Source: Octopus vulgaris | Taxonomy: Eukaryota | Assembly (NCBI GenBank): GCA_951406725.2 | Contig: OX597822.1 | Span: 40,486,001 to 40,550,000 of the forward strand | Length of the DNA stretch: 64,000 bases | Reading direction: 5' to 3' | Part shown: positions 6,184 to 48,431 of the stretch, in pieces | Layout of the letters: every line of letters begins with the position of its first letter | Position numbering within the stretch: position 1 is the stretch's first letter | The notes under the pieces: model-generated | What the model saw: the letters and a program-made list of their open reading frames with translations, nothing else | What the model was told of the DNA's origin: nothing | Database searches by the model: none | Made by a program: the position numbers and the translations under genes

Positions 6184-7052
6184 ATCGATAAAATAACTTG
6201 GCGGTTCGCCAAAGGCGATCGATAAAGTAACTTAGCGGTTCGCCAAGGGATCGATAGAATAAACTAGCGGTTCGCCAAAGGAGATCGAAAAAATAACTTA
6301 GAGGTTCACCGAAGGAATTGATAAAATAACTTAGCGGTTCGCCAAACGACATCGATACAATAACTTTGCGGTTCGCCACAGGAGATCGATAATATACCTT
6401 AGCGGTTCGCCAAACGAGATCGATTAAATAACTTAGCGGTTCACCAAAGGAGATCGATAAAGTAATATTAGCGGTTCACCAAAGAAGATCGATAAAATAA
6501 CTTAGCGGTTCGCCAATGGAGTTCGATAAAATAACTTAGTTGTTCGCCAAATGACATAGATAAAATAACCTAGCGGTTCACCAAGAGAGATCGATAGAAT
6601 AATCTAGCAGTTCGCAGATCGATAAAATAACTTAGCGGTTCATCAAACGAGATCGATAAAATAACTTAGCGGTTCGCCAAAGGTGAATGATGAAATAACT
6701 TAGCGGTGTGCCAAACAGATCGATAGAAAACCTAGCGGCTCGCCATAGGAGATCGATAAAATAACTTAGCTGTTCGCGAAAGGAGATCGATAAAAACATT
6801 AGCGGTTCGCCAAACGATATCGATAAAATAACTTTACGGTTCGGCAAACGATATCGACAGAATAATCTAGCGGTTCGCCAGAGATATCGATAAAATAACT
6901 TAGCGGTTCGCGAAAGGTGATCGATGAAATAACTCTGCGGTTCGCCAAGGAAGAACGATAAAATAACTTTGCGGTTCGCCAAACGAGATCGATAAAATAA
7001 CATAGCTGTTCGCCAAGGGTGACGATAAATAACTTAGCGGTTCGCCAAAGGA
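6184..7052 (+). repeat. 34-bp minisatellite, ~25 copies, SINE-derived
   Basis: Consensus TAACTTAGCGGTTCGCCAAAGGAGATCGATAAAA. Confidence 0.95.
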
Positions 7053-7279
7053 AATCACTGAAATTCCGAACTCATTGGCGGGAACCGGATCCGCCCACCC
7101 CGGGGAAATACCGCCACAAGTACAAATGCAAATAAGTATATACTTGTATCTATTGTCATCAGGTTCTATAACCCGCTCTCATAAGTCTATTAATATGTCC
7201 TCTTCGCTCTCCTTTTCATACCTAAAGTCACACATTGGGAGACACAAAACTCCATCCCAATATCGCTGCAACACGCATA

Positions 7280-9317: not shown

Positions 9318-11570
9318 TGTTTCAGCTCAGAGCTGCGACCATGCTGATGCACCGCCGTTTTGTGCTACACTGTTATTACGAAGAACCTCCTCTAATATGT
9401 GGTACTTGGTGAAGAATGGAGTTTGATATAGCTACTCTCATTTGCACCTCTTGCCGTGAGGTAGGTTCATCTGGGACTCTCGACAGGAAGATGTCCAGGA
9501 TCTTCCAGACATATATTACTGCATACCTCTCCCGTCTTCTCTCCAGGGAGTAGAGTCTTAGCTGTTTCAACCTTTCCCAGTAGCTGAGCTGTTGCAAAGA
9601 GACGATCTTCTTTGTGAATCTTCTCTGGGTTGCTTCAAGGTCCGCTGTTAATTTCACACTGGTGGGTGACCATAGCTGTGAACAGTAATCAAGGCGGCTG
9701 AGGACGAATGTCCGCCAGAGGACCATCATGGTTTCCTTATCTCTGGTTCTGAATGTTCTTAGGATCCAGTCAGCCAGTCGTCTGCACTTTGTCGCCATCC
9801 TGGTAATATGAACTTGGAAAGAGGTATCATCACTCATGTCGATACCCAGGTCCGTCACAGACTTAGGCTCTGGGATTGAAATTCCCTGTGGACCGGTGTA
9901 TCCTGTAAGTTTAATATTCAGTTTTGGATGCTAGTAGCGCAGGGCCTGGAATTTTTCAGCATTAAACTGCATATTATTATCCTCAGCCCATCTGTAGATT
10001 GAGTCCAACTCTTGCTGCAGGTGTGCAACATCGCTGGAGTTCTGTATTTTCTGCGAGACTTTCGTATCGTCTGCATAGCTTGCCAGAGTGGCTATCCGGG
10101 CATTTGAGGGCATATCTGAGAGGGCCACTATAAAAAGTAGTGGTCCCAAGATAGTGCCTTGTGGAACACCACTTACTATTTGTGTGTTCATAGAGGTGGC
10201 TCCATTAACCACTACTGCCTGACTCCTATCTTTCAGGAAGTCATGTAACCACACTCCAAGTTTTCCAGCTATGCCAAGGTCACGCAGTTTGTGGCATATC
10301 ATACCATGATCCACCTTGTCAAAAGCTTTTGCAAAATCAAGGTAGATTACGTCCACATTTGATTTGTTGAGTAACTGCCTCAACAACCAGTCATAATGTT
10401 GTAAGAGCTGGGTCAGGCAGCTCCTACCTGGTCGAAAACCATGCTGGGTATCACTCAGCAAGTTATTTTCCTCAAGGAATGCGATTAGTTTCTTTCTGAC
10501 TATCCGTTCCATGACTTTGCTGATGTGTGAAGTCAGAGAGACAGGCCAATAGTTTTTGGCAACTGCTCTACTTCCCCCTTTATGTATTGGGCATATTATT
10601 CCCTCCTTCAGCTTGCTTTTGCAGTTTGTCATTTGTAAGAAAGCTCTGGAAGAGAATCTTGAGTAGTTTTGCCAGGGCATGCTTACATGCTTTGAGGAGG
10701 ATTGCTGGGAAACCATCTGGACCAGCAGTTGAGTTTGTGTCCACTTCATCTATAGCTAATTGTAACCGCCTCGCTGGTTATAGGTGAGGCGGCAAAGAAG
10801 TCCACTGGTTCGTTCACTTGTCTGTGTTCCAACGGGGTGGTAAAGACACTTTTGAACTGGTCATTCAGCATCTCACTGATCTTAGTTGGACTGTCTGTGA
10901 GGGAGCCATCCTTTTGGAGGAGGGGTCCTATCTTGTAGTGTACTGACAGTTTCTTTCGCGTAATGAAAGAAGGCCTTTGGGTTTGATTTAATGTTTTTTG
11001 TAACCCAGGCTTCTTTGTCTGCTTTCTCCCTCACATAGGATTGTTGCAGCCTTTTTTCGATCTCCATCAGTGTTGTTTTTAGGCGGGACGTTTCGCTACT
11101 TTTGGGGATGTTGGTTGAGACGATTTGCAACCTTCGTCCGTCGTCTCATGAGGATCTTCCTGTCTCTTGGAATCTTGCTCCTATTTGTTTTGGCCTTGTG
11201 CTCTGGGACATATTTCTGGCATACGACTTGCACAGAAGACATGAAACATTCTAGTTTCATGTCAATGTCTGGTGTGGAGTGACATTCCGGCCAGACCTCT
11301 CTGAGGATCTCTTTTTGGATCGATTTCCAATCTGCTTTGTGGAAGTTCAGATTGGAGAGATTTCGGGTGCTTCCTTTAGGCTGTATGTCTCTGGTTACTT
11401 TTGGCCCAAACATAGACAGCTCTATTATGTTGTGATCCGAAACTAATGTCGGTGTCACTTTCACATCATGAATGATGTCCATGTTGTTCGTGAAGCAGAG
11501 ATCCAGAATGTTATTCGCCCTAGTTGGTTTGAGTACAACTTGCTCCATGAATAAGGCGTTGGTGAGGTTA
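9318..11570 (-). mobile_element. CR1/L2-group LINE, 5'-truncated and frameshifted
   Basis: PTR.NNILDL, PVSLTS..SKVMER, QHGFRPGRSC, YLDFAKAFDKVDH, SGVPQGTILGPLLF, YADD, SRLDYCSQLWSP motifs. Confidence 0.9.
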
Positions 11571-11877
11571 TATAAATATAAATAATTTAAATTAGAGATA
11601 AAACCACTATTAGGCAACTCAAACAGTGATAAACATAAACCAAAACATAAAATAAATATAAAAATAAAAACAAAAAATAAATATAATTAATATAATATAC
11701 AAAATATATATAAAATATAAAATTTAAAATTTAAATTATTGAAATTTGAAATTTAAAAATTTATTTTTAATATTTTTATATTAATAAATTTTTAAACTTT
11801 TAAACTTTTAACCTATTTTTTTATACCCGGTTTCTGGTTTGATCCGACCTCGTATATATTTACATATATATATATAC

Positions 11878-16835: not shown

Positions 16836-18902
16836 TGTTGTAGTGAAAATGGTACTCCCCTTCCCACGTAACATACTACTTTGTCACGTGTGAAGGGAAG
16901 TACCAGCCACTATAAAGTCAGGCAGTCAGTCGTTGTAGGAAGTCAATAGTTGTAGAGTTGTACGTGTTCTCAGTTGGAGTCATTTACGTGGTATACCCAG
17001 AACACACACATTCATTGATATATACACACATGCATAAATACACGCATACAAACGCTTACCTACATACATACGTACATACATACATACATACATACATATA
17101 TACATACATACATACATACATACATACATACATACATACATACATACATACATACGTACGCACGTGTGTGTGTCTGTGTGTTTATGTGTGTGTGTGAAGG
17201 GGCATGGCTTAGTGGTTAGTGTGTTGCACTTAAGACTGCAAGATCGAGGTTTCGATTCTAAGACCGAGCGTTGCCTTATGATCTTGAACAAAGTACTTCA
17301 TTTAATGTTGCTCAGCGATCATTCCGTCATTTGACATGTGGCACCCAGTTTCACCTGTACAGGTAATGTCAATTTGATGGAGGGAGTGAGCTTATGTGAA
17401 CACAAACACAAAAAAAATCTCGCAAAGGTGGAAATGAACCAGAATATAACTCCAGAAACTGTCAGAAGAGAGCGATACGATATTAAAAGTAAGGCACGAC
17501 ACAGAAGAAATCCTACGCAGAGATTGTTTACAGATAAAACCAGTATGGAAGAGTCGGAAGACGGATAAAGTGTTTCACAAAAAACACGATATACCACAGG
17601 AGATAAATCCATGTATGACATGCGGTGGTAGGCACCTGAGAAAAGAGTGTCCGTTCAAAAAATCAAAGTGTTTTTGTTTTGTGAACACAGGACATATTAA
17701 ATCGCACTTTCAGAACTAAGAAGATGAAAAATTGGACCAAACGAGTAAAAAATAGTCTGTCATTAGAGAAAAAAGTTTATACAACGAAAAGAAAATTCAT
17801 AAAAGTGAAAATCGAAATCACTAGTATCAAAATGCAATTAGACACGGGTAGTGACATCACTATCATAAATGAAGAAACATGGCGAAAAATCGGTAAGCCG
17901 AAATTATTTAAATCAAATAAAGTAGTATATGGTGTTAGAGGAAAGAAATTATATTTCATTGGTGAATGTATTTGCAATGTAACTTTTCGATAGCGCCTTA
18001 CCATCCCAGATAAAATAGACAGGCAGAACGTTTTATGGACAGTTTTAAAAGTGCTTTGAGAAAAGCAAAAAAGGAAGTTACAGATGAAATCGCTCTGCAG
18101 CGGTTCCTAAGGGTATACAGGCTGACACCGAACCCCAGTACACCAGCAGGAAGGGCACCAGCAGAACTGATGTTCGGGAAGAATGCGAAATCAGCTTTTG
18201 ATAAACTGTTACCTGGCGAAGAAAGAAAAAGTACTAAGAAAAACAATCCAATTTTTTTCAAAATTGGTGATAAGGTGTACATGAGGTCGTATAAAAACGT
18301 AAAACAGTACCGGGAAGGAGGGAAAATTATAAAGTACACAGGAAAAATGATGTACGGAATTAAAAGACACAGAAACCAATTGAAGAAGAGACTCATAGAA
18401 AATGAACCAGACAGATTAGAAGAGTCTAAGCAATGGCTGTATGGCACATTCCAGGTACCAACACCGTTACAGGTGGTTGAAACCACGCGTACAAGTAGAA
18501 GGGAAAGAGTTCCTACAAATAGATGCCAAAAAGAAAAAGTATTAAATTGGGGAAAAAAATCATTAGGAGGAGGGGTGAATAAAGTAAAATAAAATTACTT
18601 TCTTCCCAAAGAAAAAAGAAACTAAAAGGGGGAGATGTTGTAGTGAAAATGGTACTACCCTTCCTACGTGACAAAGTGGTATGTCTCAGCCATTATAAAG
18701 TCAAACAGTCAGTTGGTATAGAAATTCAATAGTAGTAGAGTCATTGTACGTGTTCTCACTTGGGGTCTGTGTCTGCTACGTGATATATACGAGTTCGAGT
18801 TACCGTCAAGGTAGAGGTTTCTAAATCATTATCTTGTGGAGCTATCAGCAATAGCATGATAGAAAAGTCAAATATAATAAGATAAGGAATACCGCTACAA
18901 CA
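16836..18902 (+). mobile_element. Internally deleted Ty3/Gypsy LTR retrotransposon relic
   Basis: LTRs start TGTTGTAG at 16836 and 18636; the second ends CTACAACA at 18902. PPT AAAAGGGGGAGA at 18624-18635. Zn-knuckle remnant ~17610-17710, protease LDTGSDITII, integrase AERF...FL..YR.TP...PAELMFG. RT/RNase H absent. Confidence 0.85.
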
Positions 18903-21897: not shown

Positions 21898-21975
<78 letters not shown>

Positions 21976-22020
21976 AAACAAGTAAAAAATAGAAAATGCT
22001 AAAATAATTTTATAGTGAAC

Positions 22021-22066
22021 ATTTCAGTACCGGTTTCGGTCATTTTGAGACCTTTTCAACTGTAAC
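22021..22066 (-). ncRNA. Minimal hammerhead ribozyme (inverted copy pLTR)
   Basis: Reverse complement of 26024-26069. Confidence 0.75.
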
Positions 22067-22752
22067 GATTAAATAATTAAATTTAGAAAAATTAGAAGAA
22101 AAGTTTTTTAAAAAAAATATTTCTATAGTAGTGTTCAGATTTAAGTGGCATTCTGCCTTTCTCTGACTCCCTTGTTTGCACTTGTGTGTTCGAGGTAGTT
22201 GTGAGTTCTTGGTAGGGTAGTAGAGGGAAGGCTGGTGAGGGAAGGGGGTGGGAGAATCTGGGAGTGCCCTGATGGTCGTATTTTGAATGGTCAGTGGCGG
22301 CTGGCAGTCTCAGTTCAATTCAGGATTGTTTATAGAATTAGCGTAGGTGTTATACTAAAAAACATTAGTGACAAACTTAAGGGGTAGGGGGTGGAGAAGA
22401 AGAAGAAGAAGAAGAAGAAGAAGAAGAAGAAGAAGAAGGAGAAGGAGAAGATGATGGTGATGGTGGTGATGATTATGACGACGATGATGATGATAACGAT
22501 GATGATGAAGAAGAAGAAGAAGAAGAAGAAGAAGAAGAAGAAGGAGAAGGAGAAGATGGTGGTGATGATGATGACGCCGATGATGATGATAACGATGATG
22601 ATGAAGAAGAAGAAGAAGAAAAAAACAGAGAAGGGAGAATATGAATGGGTGTAAATATAGCTATGAAGGGGCTGATTAGTAATGGATTCTATGGAGTGTA
22701 GTATTTGTGTGTGTATATATATTTTTTTCTTTTATTCTAAAGTTGAGGTATA

Positions 22753-24906
22753 TTAATTGTTTGTCGTAGACCCGTTAAGAAGTGGCTTGTATTTTGTAAT
22801 AAAGAGATTTTCTTTACTTATTCTTTGTCTCGAGGTTGTATCGTCCCTAAATTGGTAGAGGGGGAAAATTCTGAAGTTTGGTGTTTTTTTGTTGGCGCAA
22901 GTATCTATGTGTTGGCTAAAAGCTATTTTTCTGTTTTGGGGAATTTTTATCTGGGATCTGTGCAGGGCCATTCGTTTACGCAAACCATTTTTTGTTTGGC
23001 CTATGTACTGCTCTTGACACCCGGAGCAGGTTAGTGAGTATATTAGGTTCTCCGAAGCACATGTGAAGTTGCTTTTCACTGTAAACCGTTGTCCCTGTTT
23101 GAAGGAGAACTCCGAACCCTCGATTAGATAGTCGCATATCCCGCAATTGGGTCTTCCACATTTTTTTACTGTCGGCTTCTGTGTTGAAGAGTGAATTCGG
23201 GCTTGTGTAAGGAGACTTTTCATGGATCTAGGCTGTCTTTTGCTTTTTATGATCGTGTGTGTTTGGAGGATTGTGTTCATTCTGTGGTCTTTTTTTAGGA
23301 GGGGTATGTTGTGGAGGATGGTGTCGAAGGCTTCGTTATTGAGAGGGTTGTGTGTGGAGATGTATGGTAAGGCTTTTGGTTGTAAGTTTTTCTTTGATTT
23401 GGGATGTCTCAGTTCCTTGATGTTAAGTTGAAGGGCACGTTGAATGCACTTGTCAATAAGTGAAGGTGGATAGTTCCTGGTGATTAGGGTATCTTTTAGT
23501 TCTTGTAGTCGTGTGTCTCTGGTGTTTGCGTTAGAGACTATAGTGCATATCCTTTTTGCTAGATTGAAGGGGATATTCATCCTGGTGTGTCTGGGGTGGC
23601 ATGAATTGAATGGAAGATATTGCTTAGAGTCTGTAGGCTTATAGTATATGTCTGTTTCTATTATATTATTAGCTTTCTTAATGAGGATATCGAGGAAGGG
23701 GAGTTGTTGTTGGCTATATTCCATCGTGAATTGGATGTTTACGTCCAGTCCGTTTAAAATTTTCTGGAATTCTATGAGTTTTTCTATATTTTTATGCCAA
23801 AGGATGAAACAGTCATCTAGATATCTCTTCCAGTTGTTTTCTATGTAGATGGAGAAAGGGCTGCCATATCTTTCTAGAACCTTACGATACAGACTGATCT
23901 CTAGGTATCCTATGACTAGGTTGGCAAAGGAGGGGGCCATTCGTGTACCCATCGCAGTCCCCGATTTTTGTCGGTAGAAGTTGTCATTGAAGGCGAAGAA
24001 GTTATTTTCCAGGATGAATTTAACCCCTTCTATCACAAATTCTTTTTTGATGCGGTGTGGTAGTTCGTTGGCGTGATTCTCTAGCCAGAATTGGATTGCC
24101 TCTAGTCCTAGGTTGTGGGGGATATTGGAGTAGAGGTTGACTACATCGAAGGATACCAGTATGGTGTTTTTGTTTATAGTATTCGGTAGGTGATTGAGCA
24201 TATCTAAGTCGTCCCTTATATAGCTTTTGACATGTTTGAGGAGTGGTTTTAACAGGGTGTCTAAAAAGTTACTGAGGCGGTGGGTTTCGCATGCGGGACC
24301 TGCTATTATGGGTCTCAATTTGAGGTCATTAGGATTAGGGACTTTAATTATTTTGTCTGTAGCTATCTTGCATGCGTTGCTTATTTTTTCACTTTTGTGG
24401 ATCTTAGGTATACCGTAGAATTGGCTAGTTTTACTTGTGAAATTGGTCATATAATCATATTCTTTGTCGGTGAGCCCTGCTTTGTATGGGTTTAATATGG
24501 ATTTTAGTTCCCTCATTATTTTTTGTTGACTGTAGTTTTGTGCCTTTTCATAGTATGTTGTGTCTTCCAGCATAGAAAGTACCAAAGTTATGTAAAATGT
24601 CGTATCCATTAAGACAACAGCACTCCCTTTATCGGCCTCTTTGATTGTTATTGTTTTATCTAGTTTTAATTTGTTCAACTCAGCCCATTCTTTTTTGCTG
24701 AAGTTTGGTTTGTGTTTTTGTTTGTGCATATGTTGATATGGGTAATTTGATATGTGGTCACAGAAATCATCAAGTGTTTTATTCTTACCTTTCGAGGGGG
24801 TGTAGTTACTCCTATTTCTGGCTAACGATTCGTCCTCGTTGTATTTATCGTATAGCTCCTCAGTAAGTCTTAATTTTCTGCAGAATTCTGCGATGTCTTC
24901 TTTCAT
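22753..24906 (-). CDS. PLE RT-GIY-YIG, identical copy
   Basis: Translation identical to 27558-29711. Confidence 0.93.
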   Translation of the reverse strand: MKEDIAEFCRKLRLTEELYDKYNEDESLARNRSNYTPSKGKNKTLDDFCDHISNYPYQHMHKQKHKPNFSKKEWAELNKLKLDKTITIKEADKGSAVVLMDTTFYITLVLSMLEDTTYYEKAQNYSQQKIMRELKSILNPYKAGLTDKEYDYMTNFTSKTSQFYGIPKIHKSEKISNACKIATDKIIKVPNPNDLKLRPIIAGPACETHRLSNFLDTLLKPLLKHVKSYIRDDLDMLNHLPNTINKNTILVSFDVVNLYSNIPHNLGLEAIQFWLENHANELPHRIKKEFVIEGVKFILENNFFAFNDNFYRQKSGTAMGTRMAPSFANLVIGYLEISLYRKVLERYGSPFSIYIENNWKRYLDDCFILWHKNIEKLIEFQKILNGLDVNIQFTMEYSQQQLPFLDILIKKANNIIETDIYYKPTDSKQYLPFNSCHPRHTRMNIPFNLAKRICTIVSNANTRDTRLQELKDTLITRNYPPSLIDKCIQRALQLNIKELRHPKSKKNLQPKALPYISTHNPLNNEAFDTILHNIPLLKKDHRMNTILQTHTIIKSKRQPRSMKSLLTQARIHSSTQKPTVKKCGRPNCGICDYLIEGSEFSFKQGQRFTVKSNFTCASENLIYSLTCSGCQEQYIGQTKNGLRKRMALHRSQIKIPQNRKIAFSQHIDTCANKKTPNFRIFPLYQFRDDTTSRQRISKENLFITKYKPLLNGSTTNN

Positions 24907-25043
24907 TTCATTGTAGTTGGGGTGTTGTGGGGTGGGTGTAAACTTGAGTCCTTTGGAAAGTATGTTTATTTGGTTTGCTGTTAGTTCCTTGTGAGTTAGA
25001 TTAATAATTTTTATTACTTTTGGTTCCTCCTGCTTGTTTGGTG

Positions 25044-25816
25044 CTATCTTGTGTCTCTGTGTTTGCGTATTGGGTCTAAAAAATGAATGCGGTGGTTGGG
25101 ACGGTAGCTAGTATATAGTTGTTCTTTGTTGATTAGGGGTCTCCTGTTGTGATTTGTGGTGTGTGTTCTTGGAGCAGTATTGAGGAGAGCATCCCGATAT
25201 CCCATATTCGGGTGTGGTGTTCTAGGAGGCCTTCGTTGGTAATCATTGCAAGTGGTGTGGGTTTGTTGTGCATGGTTGTTTAACCGGTTAATGGGACGAA
25301 GATTTCGTTGGTAACTCCTTTGGGTGGGGATGAGGTTGCAGTGTCTATGCTGTGGGTGTTGATTTATCCTTTCTCTGCTTGAAGTGGGGGTATTCCTGAT
25401 ATTGTATCGCTGGCTGCTTACAGAGTTGGGGTTAGGTCCTGTATTCTTTTTTTGATAGTAGTGAAGGTTCCGATTTTTAGACGGGTGTGTATCGGTGTTT
25501 GGGTGTTGTTTTGGTTTTCTTATTTTCTGGAAAGGGTTGTTGGAGGCGTGCTCTGTTTGAAAGACGGCTTCATAGTCTGAGAACCAAGTGGCGCTTTTCT
25601 CCCAGCGTTGGAGAGATTTTAGTTCTTCTTTTTCACAGTCCTCTTTCCATAGTTTGGAGAACTTCTCTTGATCTGGGCCTTGGGTCATTTTGCGAATTTC
25701 TTCGTTGATATCTTCATCGGTGGATTTTATTTTATCCTCATTCGTTTGGGCCCTCAATTTCAGAAGTTCTATTTCCATTTTCATTTTTTCCAGTGCCATT
25801 CTCTCCCTGAGGTGTC
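25044..25816 (-). pseudogene. 5'-truncated ORF1 of the inverted PLE copy
   Basis: Identical to the C-terminal 251 aa of 26467-27420 and cut at the inversion junction. Confidence 0.8.
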
Positions 25817-26160
25817 AGGGCACTCCCAGATTCTCCCACCCCCCTTCCCTCACCAGCCTTCCCTCTACTACCCTACCAAGAACTCACAACTACCTCGAAC
25901 ACACAAGTGCAAACAAGGGAGTAAGAGAAAGGCAGAATGCCACTTAAATCTGAACACTACTATAGAAATATTCTTTTTTAAAAAAACTTTTCTTCTAATT
26001 TTTCTAAATTTAATTATTTAATCGTTACAGTTGAAAAGGTCTCAAAATGACCGAAACCGGTACTGAAATGTTCACTATAAAATTATTTTAGCATTTTCTA
26101 TTTTTTACTTGTTTTTTCATATATATCAACTCGTGTGTTCCTTTTCACCCTTATACATAT
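25815..26160 (+). repeat. 5' pseudo-LTR of PLE
   Basis: Direct repeat of 30186-30528 with few differences (e.g. GTAAGAG vs GTCAGAG). Confidence 0.9.
26024..26069 (+). ncRNA. Minimal type I hammerhead ribozyme, U3-A8 core variant (5' pLTR)
   Basis: gttacag TTGAAAA GGTC tcaaaat GACC GAAA ccgg TA ctgaaat; helix III is the palindrome ACCGGT. Confidence 0.75.
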
Positions 26161-26466
26161 CATTAACCCACACGAGATACAGAAAATGCCGACAAAAACA
26201 GACACAATCACCTCCATAAACGAAGAAATACTGAAAGAACTCAAGAAAATCAACACAAATTTGTCAACTTTTTTAACAAATTCGACTCGACACTTCAACC
26301 CAATCGAGAGAACAATGAAGAAACAGATACGAAAAATACAACCTCCGAAATTGTCGAAAACCTTGGAAACTTATGCGAAACAATTAGAACATTTTTCTCT
26401 AACAACGCTAACCAAGGACCTCCAAACGCGTCAATATATGGGATCAATACTCTAACAACATACCAA

Positions 26467-27420
26467 ATGAAACACCACATAATACCACAATGGAACAAAT
26501 CACTCAGAGATAGAAAGTTCGCCTTTTGGAAGATGATCCAAAACAACAACAAAGCGGATATATACGAAAAATGGCTCAACCGGACCCCGTTAATCCTCCC
26601 ACGTAAATTCCAGTTCAAAGCTATTACAGAAGAACCTGAAACACAAAGACACCTCAGGGAGAGAATGGCACTGGAAAAAATGAAAATGGAAATAGAACTT
26701 CTGAAATTGAGGGCCCAAACGAATGAGGATAAAATAAAATCCACCGATGAAGATATCAACGAAGAAATTCGCAAAATGACCCAAGGCCCAGATCAAGAGA
26801 AGTTCTCCAAACTATGGAAAGAGGACTGTGAAAAAGAAGAACTAAAATCTCTCCAACGCTGGGAGAAAAGCGCCACTTGGTTCTCAGACTATGAAGCCGT
26901 CTTTCAAACAGAGCACGCCTCCAACAACCCTTTCCAGAAAATAAGAAAACCAAAACAACACCCAAACACCGATACACACCCGTCTAAAAATCGGAACCTT
27001 CACTACTATCAAAAAAAGAATACAGGACCTAACCCCAACTCTGTAAGCAGCCAGCGATACAATATCAGGAATACCCCCACTTCAAGCAGAGAAAGGATAA
27101 ATCAACACCCACAGCATAGACACTGCAACCTCATCCCCACCCAAAGGAGTTACCAACGAAATCTTCGTCCCATTAACCGGTTAAACAACCATGCACAACA
27201 AACCCACACCACTTGCAATGATTACCAACGAAGGCCTCCTAGAACACCACACCCGAATATGGGATATCGGGATGCTCTCCTCAATACTGCTCCAAGAACA
27301 CACACCACAAATCACAACAGGAGACCCCTAATCAACAAAGAACAACTATATACTAGCTACCGTCCCAACCACCGCATTCATTTTTTAGACCCAATACGCA
27401 AACACAGAGACACAAGATAG
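26467..27420 (+). CDS. PLE ORF1-like protein (helical/coiled-coil N-half, Asn/Arg/Pro/His-rich C-half); frame open from 26167
   Basis: 317-aa ORF inside the element upstream of RT. Charged heptad-like segment LRERMALEKMKMEIELLKLRAQ. No recognised domain. Confidence 0.7.
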   Translation: MKHHIIPQWNKSLRDRKFAFWKMIQNNNKADIYEKWLNRTPLILPRKFQFKAITEEPETQRHLRERMALEKMKMEIELLKLRAQTNEDKIKSTDEDINEEIRKMTQGPDQEKFSKLWKEDCEKEELKSLQRWEKSATWFSDYEAVFQTEHASNNPFQKIRKPKQHPNTDTHPSKNRNLHYYQKKNTGPNPNSVSSQRYNIRNTPTSSRERINQHPQHRHCNLIPTQRSYQRNLRPINRLNNHAQQTHTTCNDYQRRPPRTPHPNMGYRDALLNTAPRTHTTNHNRRPLINKEQLYTSYRPNHRIHFLDPIRKHRDTR

Positions 27421-27557
27421 CACCAAACAAGCAGGAGGAACCAAAAGTAATAAAAATTATTAATCTAACTCACAAGGAACTAACAGCAAACCAAATAAAC
27501 ATACTTTCCAAAGGACTCAAGTTTACACCCACCCCACAACACCCCAACTACAATGAA

Positions 27558-29711
27558 ATGAAAGAAGACATCGCAGAATTCTGCAGAAAATTAAGACTTA
27601 CTGAGGAGCTATACGATAAATACAACGAGGACGAATCGTTAGCCAGAAATAGGAGTAACTACACCCCCTCGAAAGGTAAGAATAAAACACTTGATGATTT
27701 CTGTGACCACATATCAAATTACCCATATCAACATATGCACAAACAAAAACACAAACCAAACTTCAGCAAAAAAGAATGGGCTGAGTTGAACAAATTAAAA
27801 CTAGATAAAACAATAACAATCAAAGAGGCCGATAAAGGGAGTGCTGTTGTCTTAATGGATACGACATTTTACATAACTTTGGTACTTTCTATGCTGGAAG
27901 ACACAACATACTATGAAAAGGCACAAAACTACAGTCAACAAAAAATAATGAGGGAACTAAAATCCATATTAAACCCATACAAAGCAGGGCTCACCGACAA
28001 AGAATATGATTATATGACCAATTTCACAAGTAAAACTAGCCAATTCTACGGTATACCTAAGATCCACAAAAGTGAAAAAATAAGCAACGCATGCAAGATA
28101 GCTACAGACAAAATAATTAAAGTCCCTAATCCTAATGACCTCAAATTGAGACCCATAATAGCAGGTCCCGCATGCGAAACCCACCGCCTCAGTAACTTTT
28201 TAGACACCCTGTTAAAACCACTCCTCAAACATGTCAAAAGCTATATAAGGGACGACTTAGATATGCTCAATCACCTACCGAATACTATAAACAAAAACAC
28301 CATACTGGTATCCTTCGATGTAGTCAACCTCTACTCCAATATCCCCCACAACCTAGGACTAGAGGCAATCCAATTCTGGCTAGAGAATCACGCCAACGAA
28401 CTACCACACCGCATCAAAAAAGAATTTGTGATAGAAGGGGTTAAATTCATCCTGGAAAATAACTTCTTCGCCTTCAATGACAACTTCTACCGACAAAAAT
28501 CGGGGACTGCGATGGGTACACGAATGGCCCCCTCCTTTGCCAACCTAGTCATAGGATACCTAGAGATCAGTCTGTATCGTAAGGTTCTAGAAAGATATGG
28601 CAGCCCTTTCTCCATCTACATAGAAAACAACTGGAAGAGATATCTAGATGACTGTTTCATCCTTTGGCATAAAAATATAGAAAAACTCATAGAATTCCAG
28701 AAAATTTTAAACGGACTGGACGTAAACATCCAATTCACGATGGAATATAGCCAACAACAACTCCCCTTCCTCGATATCCTCATTAAGAAAGCTAATAATA
28801 TAATAGAAACAGACATATACTATAAGCCTACAGACTCTAAGCAATATCTTCCATTCAATTCATGCCACCCCAGACACACCAGGATGAATATCCCCTTCAA
28901 TCTAGCAAAAAGGATATGCACTATAGTCTCTAACGCAAACACCAGAGACACACGACTACAAGAACTAAAAGATACCCTAATCACCAGGAACTATCCACCT
29001 TCACTTATTGACAAGTGCATTCAACGTGCCCTTCAACTTAACATCAAGGAACTGAGACATCCCAAATCAAAGAAAAACTTACAACCAAAAGCCTTACCAT
29101 ACATCTCCACACACAACCCTCTCAATAACGAAGCCTTCGACACCATCCTCCACAACATACCCCTCCTAAAAAAAGACCACAGAATGAACACAATCCTCCA
29201 AACACACACGATCATAAAAAGCAAAAGACAGCCTAGATCCATGAAAAGTCTCCTTACACAAGCCCGAATTCACTCTTCAACACAGAAGCCGACAGTAAAA
29301 AAATGTGGAAGACCCAATTGCGGGATATGCGACTATCTAATCGAGGGTTCGGAGTTCTCCTTCAAACAGGGACAACGGTTTACAGTGAAAAGCAACTTCA
29401 CATGTGCTTCGGAGAACCTAATATACTCACTAACCTGCTCCGGGTGTCAAGAGCAGTACATAGGCCAAACAAAAAATGGTTTGCGTAAACGAATGGCCCT
29501 GCACAGATCCCAGATAAAAATTCCCCAAAACAGAAAAATAGCTTTTAGCCAACACATAGATACTTGCGCCAACAAAAAAACACCAAACTTCAGAATTTTC
29601 CCCCTCTACCAATTTAGGGACGATACAACCTCGAGACAAAGAATAAGTAAAGAAAATCTCTTTATTACAAAATACAAGCCACTTCTTAACGGGTCTACGA
29701 CAAACAATTAA
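27558..29711 (+). CDS. PLE reverse transcriptase + C-terminal GIY-YIG endonuclease (frame open from 27357)
   Basis: ADKG, FYGIPKIHK, LRPII, SFDVVNLYSNI, GTAMG, RYLDD, LPFLD, YYKPT, SCHP motifs; CGRPNCGIC linker; NLIY..TC..C...YIGQT. The conserved INLTHKEL..ILSKGLKFTPTP motif lies upstream of the first Met. Confidence 0.95.
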   Translation: MKEDIAEFCRKLRLTEELYDKYNEDESLARNRSNYTPSKGKNKTLDDFCDHISNYPYQHMHKQKHKPNFSKKEWAELNKLKLDKTITIKEADKGSAVVLMDTTFYITLVLSMLEDTTYYEKAQNYSQQKIMRELKSILNPYKAGLTDKEYDYMTNFTSKTSQFYGIPKIHKSEKISNACKIATDKIIKVPNPNDLKLRPIIAGPACETHRLSNFLDTLLKPLLKHVKSYIRDDLDMLNHLPNTINKNTILVSFDVVNLYSNIPHNLGLEAIQFWLENHANELPHRIKKEFVIEGVKFILENNFFAFNDNFYRQKSGTAMGTRMAPSFANLVIGYLEISLYRKVLERYGSPFSIYIENNWKRYLDDCFILWHKNIEKLIEFQKILNGLDVNIQFTMEYSQQQLPFLDILIKKANNIIETDIYYKPTDSKQYLPFNSCHPRHTRMNIPFNLAKRICTIVSNANTRDTRLQELKDTLITRNYPPSLIDKCIQRALQLNIKELRHPKSKKNLQPKALPYISTHNPLNNEAFDTILHNIPLLKKDHRMNTILQTHTIIKSKRQPRSMKSLLTQARIHSSTQKPTVKKCGRPNCGICDYLIEGSEFSFKQGQRFTVKSNFTCASENLIYSLTCSGCQEQYIGQTKNGLRKRMALHRSQIKIPQNRKIAFSQHIDTCANKKTPNFRIFPLYQFRDDTTSRQRISKENLFITKYKPLLNGSTTNN

Positions 29712-30185
29712 TATACCTCAACTTTAGAATAAAAGAAAAAAATATATATACACACACAAATACTACACTCCATAGAATCCATTACTAATCAGCCCCTTCA
29801 TAGCTATATTTACACCCATTCATATTCTCCCTTCTCTGTTTTCTTCTTCTTCTTCTTCATCATCATCGTTATCATCATCATCGGCGTCATCATCATCACC
29901 ACCATCTTCTCCTTCTCCTTCTTCTTCTTCTTCTTCTTCTTCTTCTTCTTCTTCATCATCATCGTTATCATCATCATCGTCGTCATAATCATCACCACCA
30001 TCACCATCATCTTCTCCTTCTCCTTCTTCTTCTTCTTCTTCTTCTTCTTCTTCTTCTTCTTCTCCACCCCCTACCCCTTAAGTTTGTCACTAATGTTTTT
30101 TAGTATAACACCTACGCTAATTCTATAAACAATCCTGAATTGAACTGAGACTGCCAGCCGCCACTGACCATTCAAAATACGACCA

Positions 30186-31155
<970 letters not shown>

Positions 31156-36930: not shown

Positions 36931-37355
36931 TCCTGACAGATTTGTCTGCTCTGTAAGGGATATTATCCCATATATACTGTTATATCAGTATTTTACGCGT
37001 TGAAAAAAATATATCTTTCTACTTACACTACAATACATTACAGCGCTTCAAAAATAAACTTAAGTTTGTTTACATATGACGTAATATATATATATATATA
37101 TGTATGTATATATATATATATATATATATCAATTAGTCAATTTAGGGTAGCAAAAAAATTCAATAGAAATTTATCGCTACCAGCGGCCTAGTGGAAAAGA
37201 GAAAATAGTCAACGACTAAATATATAAATATAACAATTTAGGAGTGACCTTGACAGGCCATTCGTCCACCAGAAAGAGCAGCCATAACTCACACCGCCAA
37301 GTAGTAGTAATTCAGAAATTAGGTGAAAATTTAAAAACATTTACCCTAATTCATC

Positions 37356-37453
37356 TTTTAGACGATGCATCGTTTCTGTGTCATTAATGATTAAATTAGC
37401 TTAATTAAATTAAATTAAGCTAATCTACCATAGGTTACACTTCATCAGTAAAA
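37356..37453 (-). ncRNA. Hammerhead ribozyme, family A unit 1
   Basis: Reverse complement of 38612-38709. Confidence 0.85.
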
Positions 37454-37832
37454 AACCTGGGAGAGACAAATATACACGAGGCGTCTGTATCGATGCCTCC
37501 GGAATATCTGTCTTAACATTTTCAAGACTGACGTATTCGCGCCAAACTTATCAGCAGTAAATATAAACTGCCGATTCAATCTCAGAATTATTCAGAAAAT
37601 TATCAATTAGTCAATTTAGGGTAGCAAAAAAAATTCAATAGAAATTTATCGCTACCAGCGGCCTAGTGGAAAAGAGAAAATAGTCAACGACTAAATATAT
37701 AAATATAACAATTTAGGAGTGACCTTAACAGGAACCATTCGTCCACCAGAAAGAGCAGCCATAACTCACACCGCCAAGTAGTAGTAATTCAGAAATTAGG
37801 TGAAAATTTAAAAACATTTACCCTAATTCATC

Positions 37833-37932
37833 TTTTAGACGATGCATCGTTTCTGTGTCATTAATGATTAAATTAGCTTAATTAAATTAAATTAAAGCTA
37901 ATCTACCATAAGGTTACACTTCATCAGTAAAA
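37833..37932 (-). ncRNA. Hammerhead ribozyme, family A unit 2
   Basis: Same motif with two single-A insertions in helix II. Confidence 0.8.
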
Positions 37933-38307
37933 AACCTGGGAGAGACAAATATACACGAGGCGTCTGTATCGATGCCTCCGGAATATCTGTCTTAACATTT
38001 TCAAGACTGACGTATTCGCGCCAAACTTATCAGCAGTAAATATAAACTGCCGATTCAATCTCAGAATTATTCAGAAAATTATCAATTAGTCAATTTAGGG
38101 TAGCAAAAAAATTCAATAGAAATTTATCGCTACCAGCGGCCTAGTGGAAAGAGAAAATAGTCAACGACTAAATATATAAATATAACAATTTAGGAGTGAC
38201 CTTAACAGGCCATTCGTCCACCAGAAAGAGCAGCCATAACTCACACCGCCAAGTAGTAGTAATTCAGAAATTAGGTGAAAATTTAAAAACATTTACCCTA
38301 ATTCATC

Positions 38308-38405
38308 TTTTAGACGATGCATCGTTTCTGTGTCATTAATGATTAAATTAGCTTAATTAAATTAAATTAAGCTAATCTACCATAGGTTACACTTCATCAG
38401 TAAAA
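38308..38405 (-). ncRNA. Hammerhead ribozyme, family A unit 3
   Basis: Reverse complement of 38612-38709. Confidence 0.85.
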
Positions 38406-38611
38406 AACCTGGGAGATAAATTTCTATTGAATTTTTTTGCTACCCTAAATTGACTAATTGATAATTTTCTGAATAATTCTGAGATTGAATCGGCAGTTTA
38501 TATTTACTGCTGATAAAGTTTGGCGCGAATACGTCAGTCTTGAAAATTTTAAGACAGATATTCCGGAAGGCATCGATACAGACGCCTCGTGTATATTTGT
38601 CTCTCCCAGGT

Positions 38612-38709
38612 TTTTACTGATGAAGTGTAACCTATGGTAGATTAGCTTAATTTAATTTAATTAAGCTAATTTAATCATTAATGACACAGAAACGATGCAT
38701 CGTCTAAAA
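38612..38709 (+). ncRNA. Type I hammerhead ribozyme with extended helix II (family A)
   Basis: tttta CTGATGA agtgt...attagcttaatt/aattaagctaat...acaca GAAA cgatgcatcg TC taaaa; helix III is the palindrome ACGATGCATCGT. Confidence 0.85.
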
Positions 38710-38831
38710 GATGAATTAGGGTAAATGTTTTTAAATTTTCACCTAATTTCTGAATTACTACCACTTGGCGGTGTGAGTTATGGCTGCTCTTTCTGGTGGA
38801 CGAATGGCCTGTTAAGGTCACTCCTAAATTG

Positions 38832-38891
<60 letters not shown>

Positions 38892-39261
38892 GAAATCAAT
38901 AGTAATACACGTTCTAATATAACGGTTGGCAATCCTATACGACATTATTCGAGTTGTTTCCCATTCGGGGCTGGCGGTGGAACTTCAATCACCTTGAATA
39001 AAGATGTATCGGATTATCAAGCTTTGGATTAGGATGCATACTATAATCGATTTAATATAAATCAATAAATGCTCTCATAAAATGATTCTAAGATACTTAT
39101 TCAGCAGAAAAATGCCTCCGAATATAATATGGAGAATATGCTCCTTAAAAAAATGTTAATGATAAACATCATTCTTTCCATTCTTCATTATTTTCTCTCT
39201 CCTTCTCTTTCTCTCTCTCTCTCTCATTATCTTTCACTCTCCCTATACATAAGTACATATG

Positions 39262-46902: not shown

Positions 46903-46975
<73 letters not shown>

Positions 46976-47198
46976 ATTAATAAATATAAGGGTAGCAAAA
47001 AATTCTAGAAAAAATTCTCCGCTACCAGCAGTCTAGCGAGAAAGAAAAGATAATCTAAGACTATATAATATACATTCAACAATATCAGGAATGGCCATAA
47101 TAGGACATTCGACTCACTAGAAAGAGCAGCCAAACTCAAACCGCTAAATAGTTGTAATTCTAAAATTGAAAGAGAAATAAAAACGTTTACCCCTTTCA

Positions 47199-47293
47199 TC
47201 TCTGGACTATGCATAGTTTCGGCAAACTTTGGTAAACAAATTAATTAAATTAAAGTAAATTTATTTACAACTGGCGTGCCTTGTCAGCAGAGA
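47199..47293 (-). ncRNA. Family B hammerhead, core mutated (CTGACAA)
   Basis: Perfect helix I and GGCA/TGCC helix II base, with a G8->A substitution. Confidence 0.7.
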
Positions 47294-47659
47294 AGCCAAG
47301 GACGAGTATATGTCCACGTGGCGATGGTAAAGAAGCTTCCAGTCTATATGCTCTAAATTTTCAAAATCTGCCGCAATGGCGCGGTCTTCTCAGCAGCAAA
47401 TATAAACTGCTGATTTAATTTCAAAATTAGCCAAAAAATCATTAATTAATAAATATAAGGGTAGCAAAAATTCTAGAAAAAATTCTCCGCTACCAGCGGT
47501 CTAGCGAGAAAGAGAAGATAGTCAAAGACTATATAATATACATTCAACAATATTTGCTGTTGAGAAGACCGCGCCATTGCGGTAGATTTTGAAAATTTAG
47601 AGCATATAGACTGGAGGCTTCTTTACCATCGCCTCGTGGACATATACTCGTCCTCGGCT

Positions 47660-47754
47660 TCTCTGCTGACGAGGCACGCAAGTTGTAAATAAATTTACTT
47701 TAATTTAATCAATTTGTTTACCAAAGTTTGACGAAACTATGCATAGTCCAGAGA
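47660..47754 (+). ncRNA. Type I hammerhead ribozyme with extended helix II (family B)
   Basis: tctctg CTGACGA ggca...gtaaataaatt/aatttgtttac...tgac GAAA ctatgcatag TC cagaga. Confidence 0.85.
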
Positions 47755-48431
47755 TGAAAGGGGTAAACGTTTTTATTTCTCTTTCAATTTCAGAATTACA
47801 ACTAGTTAGCGATTTGAGTTTGGCTGCTCTTTCTAGTGAGTCGAATATCCTATTATGGCCATTCCTGATATTGTTGAATGTATATTATATAGTCTTTGAT
47901 TATCTTTTCTTTCTCGCTAGACCGCTGGTAGCGGAGAATTTTTTCTAGAATTTTTTGCTACCCTTATATTTATTAATGATTTTTTGGCTAATTTTGAAAT
48001 TAAATCAGCGGTTTATATTTGCTGCTGAGAAGACCGCGCCATTGCGGTAGATTTTGAAAATTTAGAGCATATAGACTGGAGGCTTCTATACCATAGCCTC
48101 GTGGACATATACTCCTCCTTGGCTTCTCTCCTTCCCTTGATGCCCAATAAACACATGCTTATTTTGCTCAATGGTTAACCCAGCGCTGGTCTTGACCTGT
48201 GAGGAATTACTTGTATTTATACTTGTTACATGTGTGCTAAATAACTCTGGCATTGATTGTACTTCAGTCCCGGAACAGCAGAAACTGCTGAGCGGGTGAC
48301 TAGAACTGATTTCTGAATCATAAGCTCACACACATCTGACATGCAACAAAACTTCATAACTCCAAATCCGCAAACGTTTCACTCATAACAACGCTACAAA
48401 AGATCCGCCCCCGCGCTCTCTAAATCTCTCT

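Follow-up and report, generated by a model that had tools for sequence, protein, structure and literature searches.

With moderate confidence, we explain family A of Octopus vulgaris as a multicopy non-coding repeat that the protein of a Penelope-like element (PLE) copies in trans into (TA)n tracts, probably from a self-cleaved monomer circle. That family A is a non-autonomous element mobilised by PLEs is very probable. Its ends carry the Penelope insertion signature, and it is therefore likely to be a parasite of Penelope-like elements. Judged by its DNA features, family A is an animal non-LTR retrozyme. This class is already known.

Architecture of family A and its hammerhead motifs

The element that we studied lies in a window of 64,000 nt, the whole stretch of DNA that was analysed, which spans 40486001-40550000 of contig OX597822.1 (Table 1). 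A sequence-only reading had described ~2.7 near-identical non-coding units and an inverted partial unit, with a type I hammerhead in each unit, a 2-nt GA overlap at the central 5′-5′ junction and both 3′ ends running into (TA)n. All of these points were borne out, and four hammerhead motifs were found in the element. The tandem array has a period of 475 nt with 2.7 copies and 98% matches, and the inverted arm matches the left one at 97-98% identity. The arms terminate at two different fixed sites, a point absent from the earlier reading. Between the predicted cleavage sites lie a predicted monomer of 475 nt and the next one (37361-37837, 477 nt), which differs from the former solely by 6 gap positions. 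In a natural two-unit stretch of family A the longest ATG-started frame has 43 codons. Two traits of retrozymes are thus present, namely tandem non-coding units of a few hundred bases with low GC (475-nt period, 34% GC) and at least two consecutive type I hammerheads (three consecutive and one inverted).

Table 1. Positions of family A, its sister family B and the coding PLE in the window
Feature	Position	Strand	Remarks
Left arm	37127..38416	-	2.7 units in tandem, running from unit position ~371 (5′) to fixed site B (3′)
Site B	~232-237 nt after predicted cleavage site		3′ end of left arm
Right inverted arm	38415..38837	+	0.9 of a unit, running from unit position ~186 (5′) to fixed site A (3′)
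Site A	~136 nt after predicted cleavage site		3′ end of right arm
Head-to-head (5′-5′) junction	38415..38416	.	2-nt GA microhomology
(TA)n target, left flank	37084..37129	.	
(TA)n target, right flank	38833..38891	.	
Predicted monomer	37838..38312	-	between two predicted cleavage sites; 475 nt, 34% GC
Type I hammerhead motif	38612..38709	+	predicted cleavage 3′ of C38704; 65-nt helix II region
Type I hammerhead motif	38308..38405	-	predicted cleavage 3′ of C38313
Type I hammerhead motif	37833..37932	-	predicted cleavage 3′ of C37838
Type I hammerhead motif	37356..37453	-	predicted cleavage 3′ of C37361
9-mer CCTAAATTG	37138..37146	-	just before end site B
9-mer CCTAAATTG, second copy	37234-37242	-	96 nt upstream of 37138..37146; before site A
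9-mer CCTAAATTG	38823..38831	+	just before end site A of right arm
Conserved hairpin (GGTAGC...GCTACC)	37146..37181	-	in 96-nt tail, directly before site B
Family B sister element	46972-48130		~470-nt unit, ~72% identical to family A, same two end sites
Neptune-like PLE	21903-30525		young, coding, head-to-head; two ends ~34 nt apart into (TA)n
784-aa RT-GIY-YIG frames of Neptune-like PLE	22753-25107; 27357-29711	minus; plus	
Minimal U3-A8 hammerheads of Neptune-like PLE	22028-22059, 26031-26062, 30399-30430		

Elsewhere in the window, a 34-nt minisatellite of 26 copies was observed at 6184-7056. Judged by their motifs, the frame fragments on the minus strand at 9376-11686 are presumably of LINE-type RT/endonuclease origin, and a frame fragment on the plus strand at 18014-18592 is presumably integrase-like.

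Scanning the window for the hammerhead core gave five type I motifs, four in the family A element and one in family B near 47.7 kb. The family A motif has the form CTGATGA, 65-67 nt, GAA-ACGATGCATCGT-C, the final C being C17. Helix III is a perfect 12-nt palindrome, the helix II region measures 65 nt and helix II does have an A.A opposition at its base, all in line with the earlier reading. A 22-nt hammerhead motif had 195 exact matches in the genome compared to none for the reversed control, which shows that the motif is not due to chance. When 45 copies of families A and B were aligned, RNAalifold recovered helices I, II and III unprompted. The 34 named pairs were paired in 97.8% of 1,529 cells, with slid controls reaching 35-50%, and two-sided change was seen in 14 of the 34, although these changes represent few subfamily events and not 45 independent ones. 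Compensatory changes across subfamilies occur in all three helices. Helix III exists in three forms, all perfect palindromes (100, 86 and 39 of 233 parsed sites). A helix III pattern allowing 16 combinations, only four of them palindromic, had 1,146 matches genome-wide against 12 for the control, and 100 of 100 among the matches listed were palindromic. As judged from the aligned copies, the hammerhead of families A and B is under selection. The changing positions pair in monomer and dimer folds alike and can therefore not tell these folds apart.

In the listed rows of 229 sites from both families, the base of helix II was A.A in 173, A.C in 3 and G.C in 39. The A.A form belongs to family A, A.C to a small subfamily and G.C to family B, with the next pairs covarying; A.A characterises the family and is no sign of decay. 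PMC4209133 reports that PLE hammerheads have an unpaired base on the 5′ side of stem II. We found no literature on an A.A opposition at this position, and PMC2632901 does not mention the helix II base pair.

The Rfam check proposed with the earlier reading was negative, with no matches in the window at the gathering score and no hammerhead family among the 25 matches at E<=10 in 37000-39000, which are AT-rich chance matches. The long helix II is a likely reason for this miss. The predicted minimum-energy fold of the family A motif, and that of the circle, is not the active hammerhead fold, so that the predicted cleavage may be weak or assisted. Folded as a circle, the monomer had z=-4.0 compared to 40 shuffles.

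A pattern search for a short helix II returned family B deletions and an unrelated hammerhead family. The latter (L169-L195, e.g. L175:1500-1540) is older and diverged; its non-coding repeats carry a hammerhead with a short helix II and the palindromic helix III ACACTGCAGTGT, and some of its copies form ~340-nt tandems.

Insertion ends and coding Penelope-like elements

A search of the 2.8-Gb genome with one unit returned 1,136 candidate places, of which 39 were scored; these contained 174 matches. Together with the 195 and 1,146 motif matches, this confirmed a multicopy and not a single-copy element, and the genomic copies showed that it is young and targeted to (TA)n, as had been proposed. 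We sampled copies from 38 other top places, a set biased to young multi-unit copies, and from 40 further places, mostly singletons, taken from the first 100 listed of the 195 motif matches. About half of the first 100 listed matches to the helix III pattern belong to family B, which is older than family A, its copies being ~90-95% alike. Families A and B align across the whole unit and share its length and ends, indicating that the non-coding unit has persisted as a lineage.

The sample contained 81 elements in 79 stretches, 50 of them head-to-head inverted and 31 with a single arm. Counted from the predicted cleavage, the 3′ ends of the arms lie at about +136, here called site A, or at about +232, called site B, 96 nt apart. 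Both ends were at A or B in 44 of the 50 inverted elements, with 43 A+B, one B+B and no A+A (p=2.6e-12 against 50:50), and one end lay outside A/B in the remaining 6. The single arms ended at A or B in 27 of 31 cases (19 at A, 8 at B, 4 elsewhere). At least six TA units followed 88 of the 94 A/B ends, a count that is partly circular at site A where the unit itself is AT-rich. Insertion within (TA)n masks any target-site duplication, which in retrozymes exceeds 4 bp when present.

Both sites are preceded by the same 9-mer. In family A this is CCTAAATTG (172 at A, 129 at B) and in family B CCTTATATT (35 at A, 25 at B), changed in step; in these counts the first three letters were largely fixed by the search and the last six are the test. 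Site A lies within a long covarying stem, and a conserved hairpin precedes site B. The 20 stretches retrieved with the 9-mer+(TA)n pattern contained unrelated repeats as well as further subfamilies of family A.

In contrast to the fixed 3′ ends, the 5′ ends of the arms are spread over the unit, and the overlaps at the junctions are mostly 0-7 nt. Only 2 of 94 5′ ends fall at unit positions 1-5, suggesting that the RT does not usually run off a cleaved linear end; that 5′ ends do not stop at the predicted cleavage site is expected if the template is continuous there. An apparent excess of 5′ ends at unit position 1 disappeared with a two-unit reference and is explained by the boundaries of the BLAST alignments. 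Positions 368-373 (window ~38411-38416) hold 8 of 94 5′ ends, a number reached in 6 of 300 uniform simulations, and this cluster could be a transcript start, an RT stop or chance. It is located just upstream of the hammerhead, at a pyrimidine tract ending CAG. The junction at window 38415 and that of a distant locus, L043, are near-identical (371/186 and 373/186, respectively), and this likeness suggests a favoured head-to-head junction.

Fold-back self-priming, proposed for PLE head-to-head structures in PMC3846280, or L1-type twin priming could in principle produce the inverted arm instead of two independent starts at A and B. In 6 of 47 junctions both 5′ ends lie within 15 nt of the same unit position, where about 3 were expected. 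However, 41 of the 47 join unrelated positions, and fold-back leaves the other fixed end of the second arm unexplained in 43 of 44 cases. We therefore regard this origin as very improbable.

Of the features expected of PLE mobilisation, two fixed 3′ ends, variable 5′ ends, head-to-head arms and a (TA)n target shared with intact PLEs of the genome were found; a further one would be similarity to the 3′ end or pLTR of an autonomous partner. The proposal that a (TA)n-targeting PLE RT/EN mobilises the element is strongly supported, as the signature of two fixed ends and head-to-head arms is common to four coding PLE families. These RT-GIY-YIG families (784, 781, 899 and 778 aa) have near-identical copies with two fixed ends into (TA)n, and their tails of ~34, ~34, ~155 and ~150 nt all differ from the 96 nt of family A. 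The Neptune-like PLE in the window has 85 scored genomic copies with 99-100% protein identity, many sharing the same 784-aa frame. An upstream 417-aa frame overlaps this frame in another phase, and the phase change may reflect an intron or a programmed frameshift. The 899-aa and 778-aa families (L229-L258, L299-L328) are young and carry long tails and hammerheads with a ~50-55-nt helix II region; in the 778-aa family the hammerhead core CCGAAGA replaces CUGANGA. The 899-aa clade (C3-G8 core, long helix II, long tail) is nearest to family A in anatomy, which we treat as a lead only.

The unit showed no similarity to the four coding families, which were sampled among thousands of PLE candidates. 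Profile matches in L201, L229, L299 and L320 were rejected as partner similarity, their positions being outside the coding elements. In the 167 stretches (38+29, 40, 40 and 20; flanks of 1.5-4.5 kb), a sample of the genome, no coding ORF was attached to family A or B, and no RT-GIY-YIG ORF lay between or upstream of the repeats as in an autonomous PLE. PLE ORFs near L036, L037, L043, L146, L148, L277 and L347/L348 belong to separate insertions in shared (TA)n tracts; these are the loci read by eye, further PLE matches lying near L031, L108, L112, L117, L136, L157, L260, L278, L331 and L346. The ORF at L277 looked as if joined to a family B pLTR, but a SINE-like repeat separates the two, and the PLE carries a hammerhead and a (TA)n end of its own. 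The junction of PLE and family A shared by L347 and L348 is one 4.2-kb duplication with shared flanks.

These data bear on the alternative, already considered in the sequence-only reading, that a coding PLE elsewhere is the source of the units, which would be its pLTRs in solo or amplified form. Here the arrays would have grown by unequal crossing-over and been homogenised by gene conversion, which is the model of a 2026 preprint (10.64898/2026.07.22.740005). The preprint covers four invertebrates, namely three insects and a coral. In it, Xenopus retrozymes are homologous to pLTRs of annotated PLEs and 24 of 57 families match TEs. Some local duplication is also likely in our copies (repeated units at L039), and the copies examined are a sample. 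Against this origin, no such PLE was present in the 167 stretches, a sample and not the whole genome, and in all seven cases read by eye the nearby PLE ORF belongs to a separate insertion that has ends of its own. Moreover, families A and B are alike over the whole unit (~72%) with the same length and ends, and dispersed multi-unit arrays show fresh A/B ends and arm-to-arm identity. We give this alternative little credence, while an ancient pLTR origin of the unit is possible.

The template of family A insertions

To describe the template, we compared units within and between loci. At family-wide polymorphic sites, units within one arm differed in 32 of 74,400 comparisons (0.04%) and the two arms of one locus in 38 of 56,958 (0.07%), against 269,355 of 8,220,218 (3.3%) between loci. 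Among locus-private variants at sites covered by at least three units, 10 were fixed in all units (9 of them across both arms), 6 were mosaic and 63 were singletons. The shared haplotype per locus indicates that a single unit is usually the ancestor of both arms and of all their units, and we consider one template unit per insertion likely. Of the earlier proposal of a multimeric or circular RNA template, the haplotype data thus favour the version with one template unit per insertion. A homogeneous parent outside the sample, or assembly polishing that flattened unit differences, could contribute to the homogeneity. The mosaic private variants stand partly in alternate units (L033, L039, L059, L158), and for 16 site/allele pairs mosaicism recurs in at least two loci. 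Such alternate-unit mosaics point to some dimer templates or later local duplication; a pure monomer circle leaves them unexplained.

Given one template unit, we see even chances that it is a hammerhead-made circle. A monomer circle explains the one-haplotype data, and repeated template switching on a terminally redundant linear RNA explains them equally well, DNA alone being unable to separate the two. The same PLE parasite might accordingly use an uncleaved linear RNA, either a homogeneous-master multimer or a transcript slightly longer than the unit with repeated template switching, the hammerhead being kept for another step. In the only in vitro PLE system, Poseidon, cleavage is dispensable: hammerhead mutants still inserted and the dominant template was uncleaved RNA (PMC11167929). 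Furthermore, preprint 10.64898/2026.07.22.740005 reports that in vitro cleavage failed in 8 of 9 retrozyme dimers from Xenopus. Both observations count against the circle step. An uncleaved template also agrees with the weak predicted folding and A.A of family A, with the alternating-unit variants in L033, L039 and L059, and with the 5′-end cluster at 368-373 if this is a transcript start or RT stop. However, ten whole-locus private variants and the near-absence of mosaic family-wide variants would require a one-unit bottleneck at almost every insertion, and from a plain multimer mosaics would be passed on. On balance, we consider the uncleaved linear template unlikely.

In the mechanism that we favour, a tandem copy would first be transcribed. 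Adjacent hammerheads are predicted to cleave the transcript, probably weakly, in dimeric form or assisted by protein, with the ~475-nt monomer then predicted to be ligated into a circle. A PLE protein dimer would then occupy the 9-mer-marked sites A and B of one RNA, both (TA)n strands would be nicked and one cDNA would be started per site. Each RT would go round the same unit for a length that varies and reaches about 7 units at most, before the two cDNA ends are joined via 0-7 nt microhomology. What the genome shows is the product, a pair of arms placed head-to-head that share one haplotype and have random 5′ ends; one arm stops at A, its counterpart at B, and both lie in (TA)n. The Poseidon PLE protein is a predicted dimer, and in vitro its RT starts at two internal sites bounding the tail, with both target strands being cleaved and extended (PMC11167929).

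More tentatively, family A may be a viroid-like hammerhead-made circle, unrelated in sequence to any coding element, that hijacks the PLE dimer via a duplicated 9-nt signal, both RTs rolling round it from starts 96 nt apart. If this is true, the copies record how the inverted arms and tails of PLEs form, by one dimer on one RNA with two starts.

Family A among known retrozymes and Penelope-like elements

Compared to the animal non-LTR retrozymes in the accessible parts of PMC7229834 and preprint 10.64898/2026.07.22.740005, family A has its own 65-nt helix II region, A.A base and 12-nt palindromic helix III. We encountered neither head-to-head arms with two fixed ends nor (TA)n targeting in those parts, and in the available text of PMC7229834 the words 'inverted' and 'microsatellite' occur 0 times. 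According to a 2020 review (PMC7761336), animal retrozymes carry no motif pointing to a partner, whereas the end signature of family A points to a partner type. Unlike the Xenopus retrozymes, family A had no homologous pLTR among the four coding PLE families sampled. Self-cleavage and monomeric linear and circular RNA are further features expected of animal retrozymes, to which family A is assigned by its DNA features.

With EN+ PLEs (PMC8557442, PMC3846280 and PMC11167929), family A shares partial tandems, an inverted 5′-truncated arm, a tail confined to one end, insertion into AT-rich or (TA)n DNA and a hammerhead that precedes the 3′ ends. That tandem or inverted PLE insertions bear a tail at one end is already published in PMC8557442 and PMC3846280. 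Family A differs in having no ORF and a tail of 96 nt, compared to the 30-40 nt reported there. Its core is the canonical C3-G8, in contrast to the U3-A8 minimal motifs of Neptune-like families of the same genome. The MRC1-type elements of Chlamys (PMC8557442) are likewise non-coding PLE derivatives with pLTRs and multicopy head-to-tail insertions. Their 3′ ends resemble those of their autonomous families, and their clade lacks canonical hammerheads, whereas in family A a hammerhead is present and no matching partner was found among the four families sampled. In a literature that was mostly non-subscription and without Repbase, we found no description of family A, of any cephalopod retrozyme, or of one-start-per-arm or shared-haplotype evidence.

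In the published text available to us, PLE mobilisation of animal retrozymes from circles has been argued so far from co-occurrence and pLTR similarity. To this, family A adds insertion-level evidence in the form of the PLE end signature, the one-start-per-arm rule and one haplotype across both arms, and the genomic evidence for the proposed Penelope mobilisation of retrozymes is unusually clear. Its 475-nt template with two mapped start sites, combined with the four intact candidate proteins, would allow the formation of tails and inverted arms to be tested in vitro. Family A is therefore a good example and test system, and not a new kind of element.
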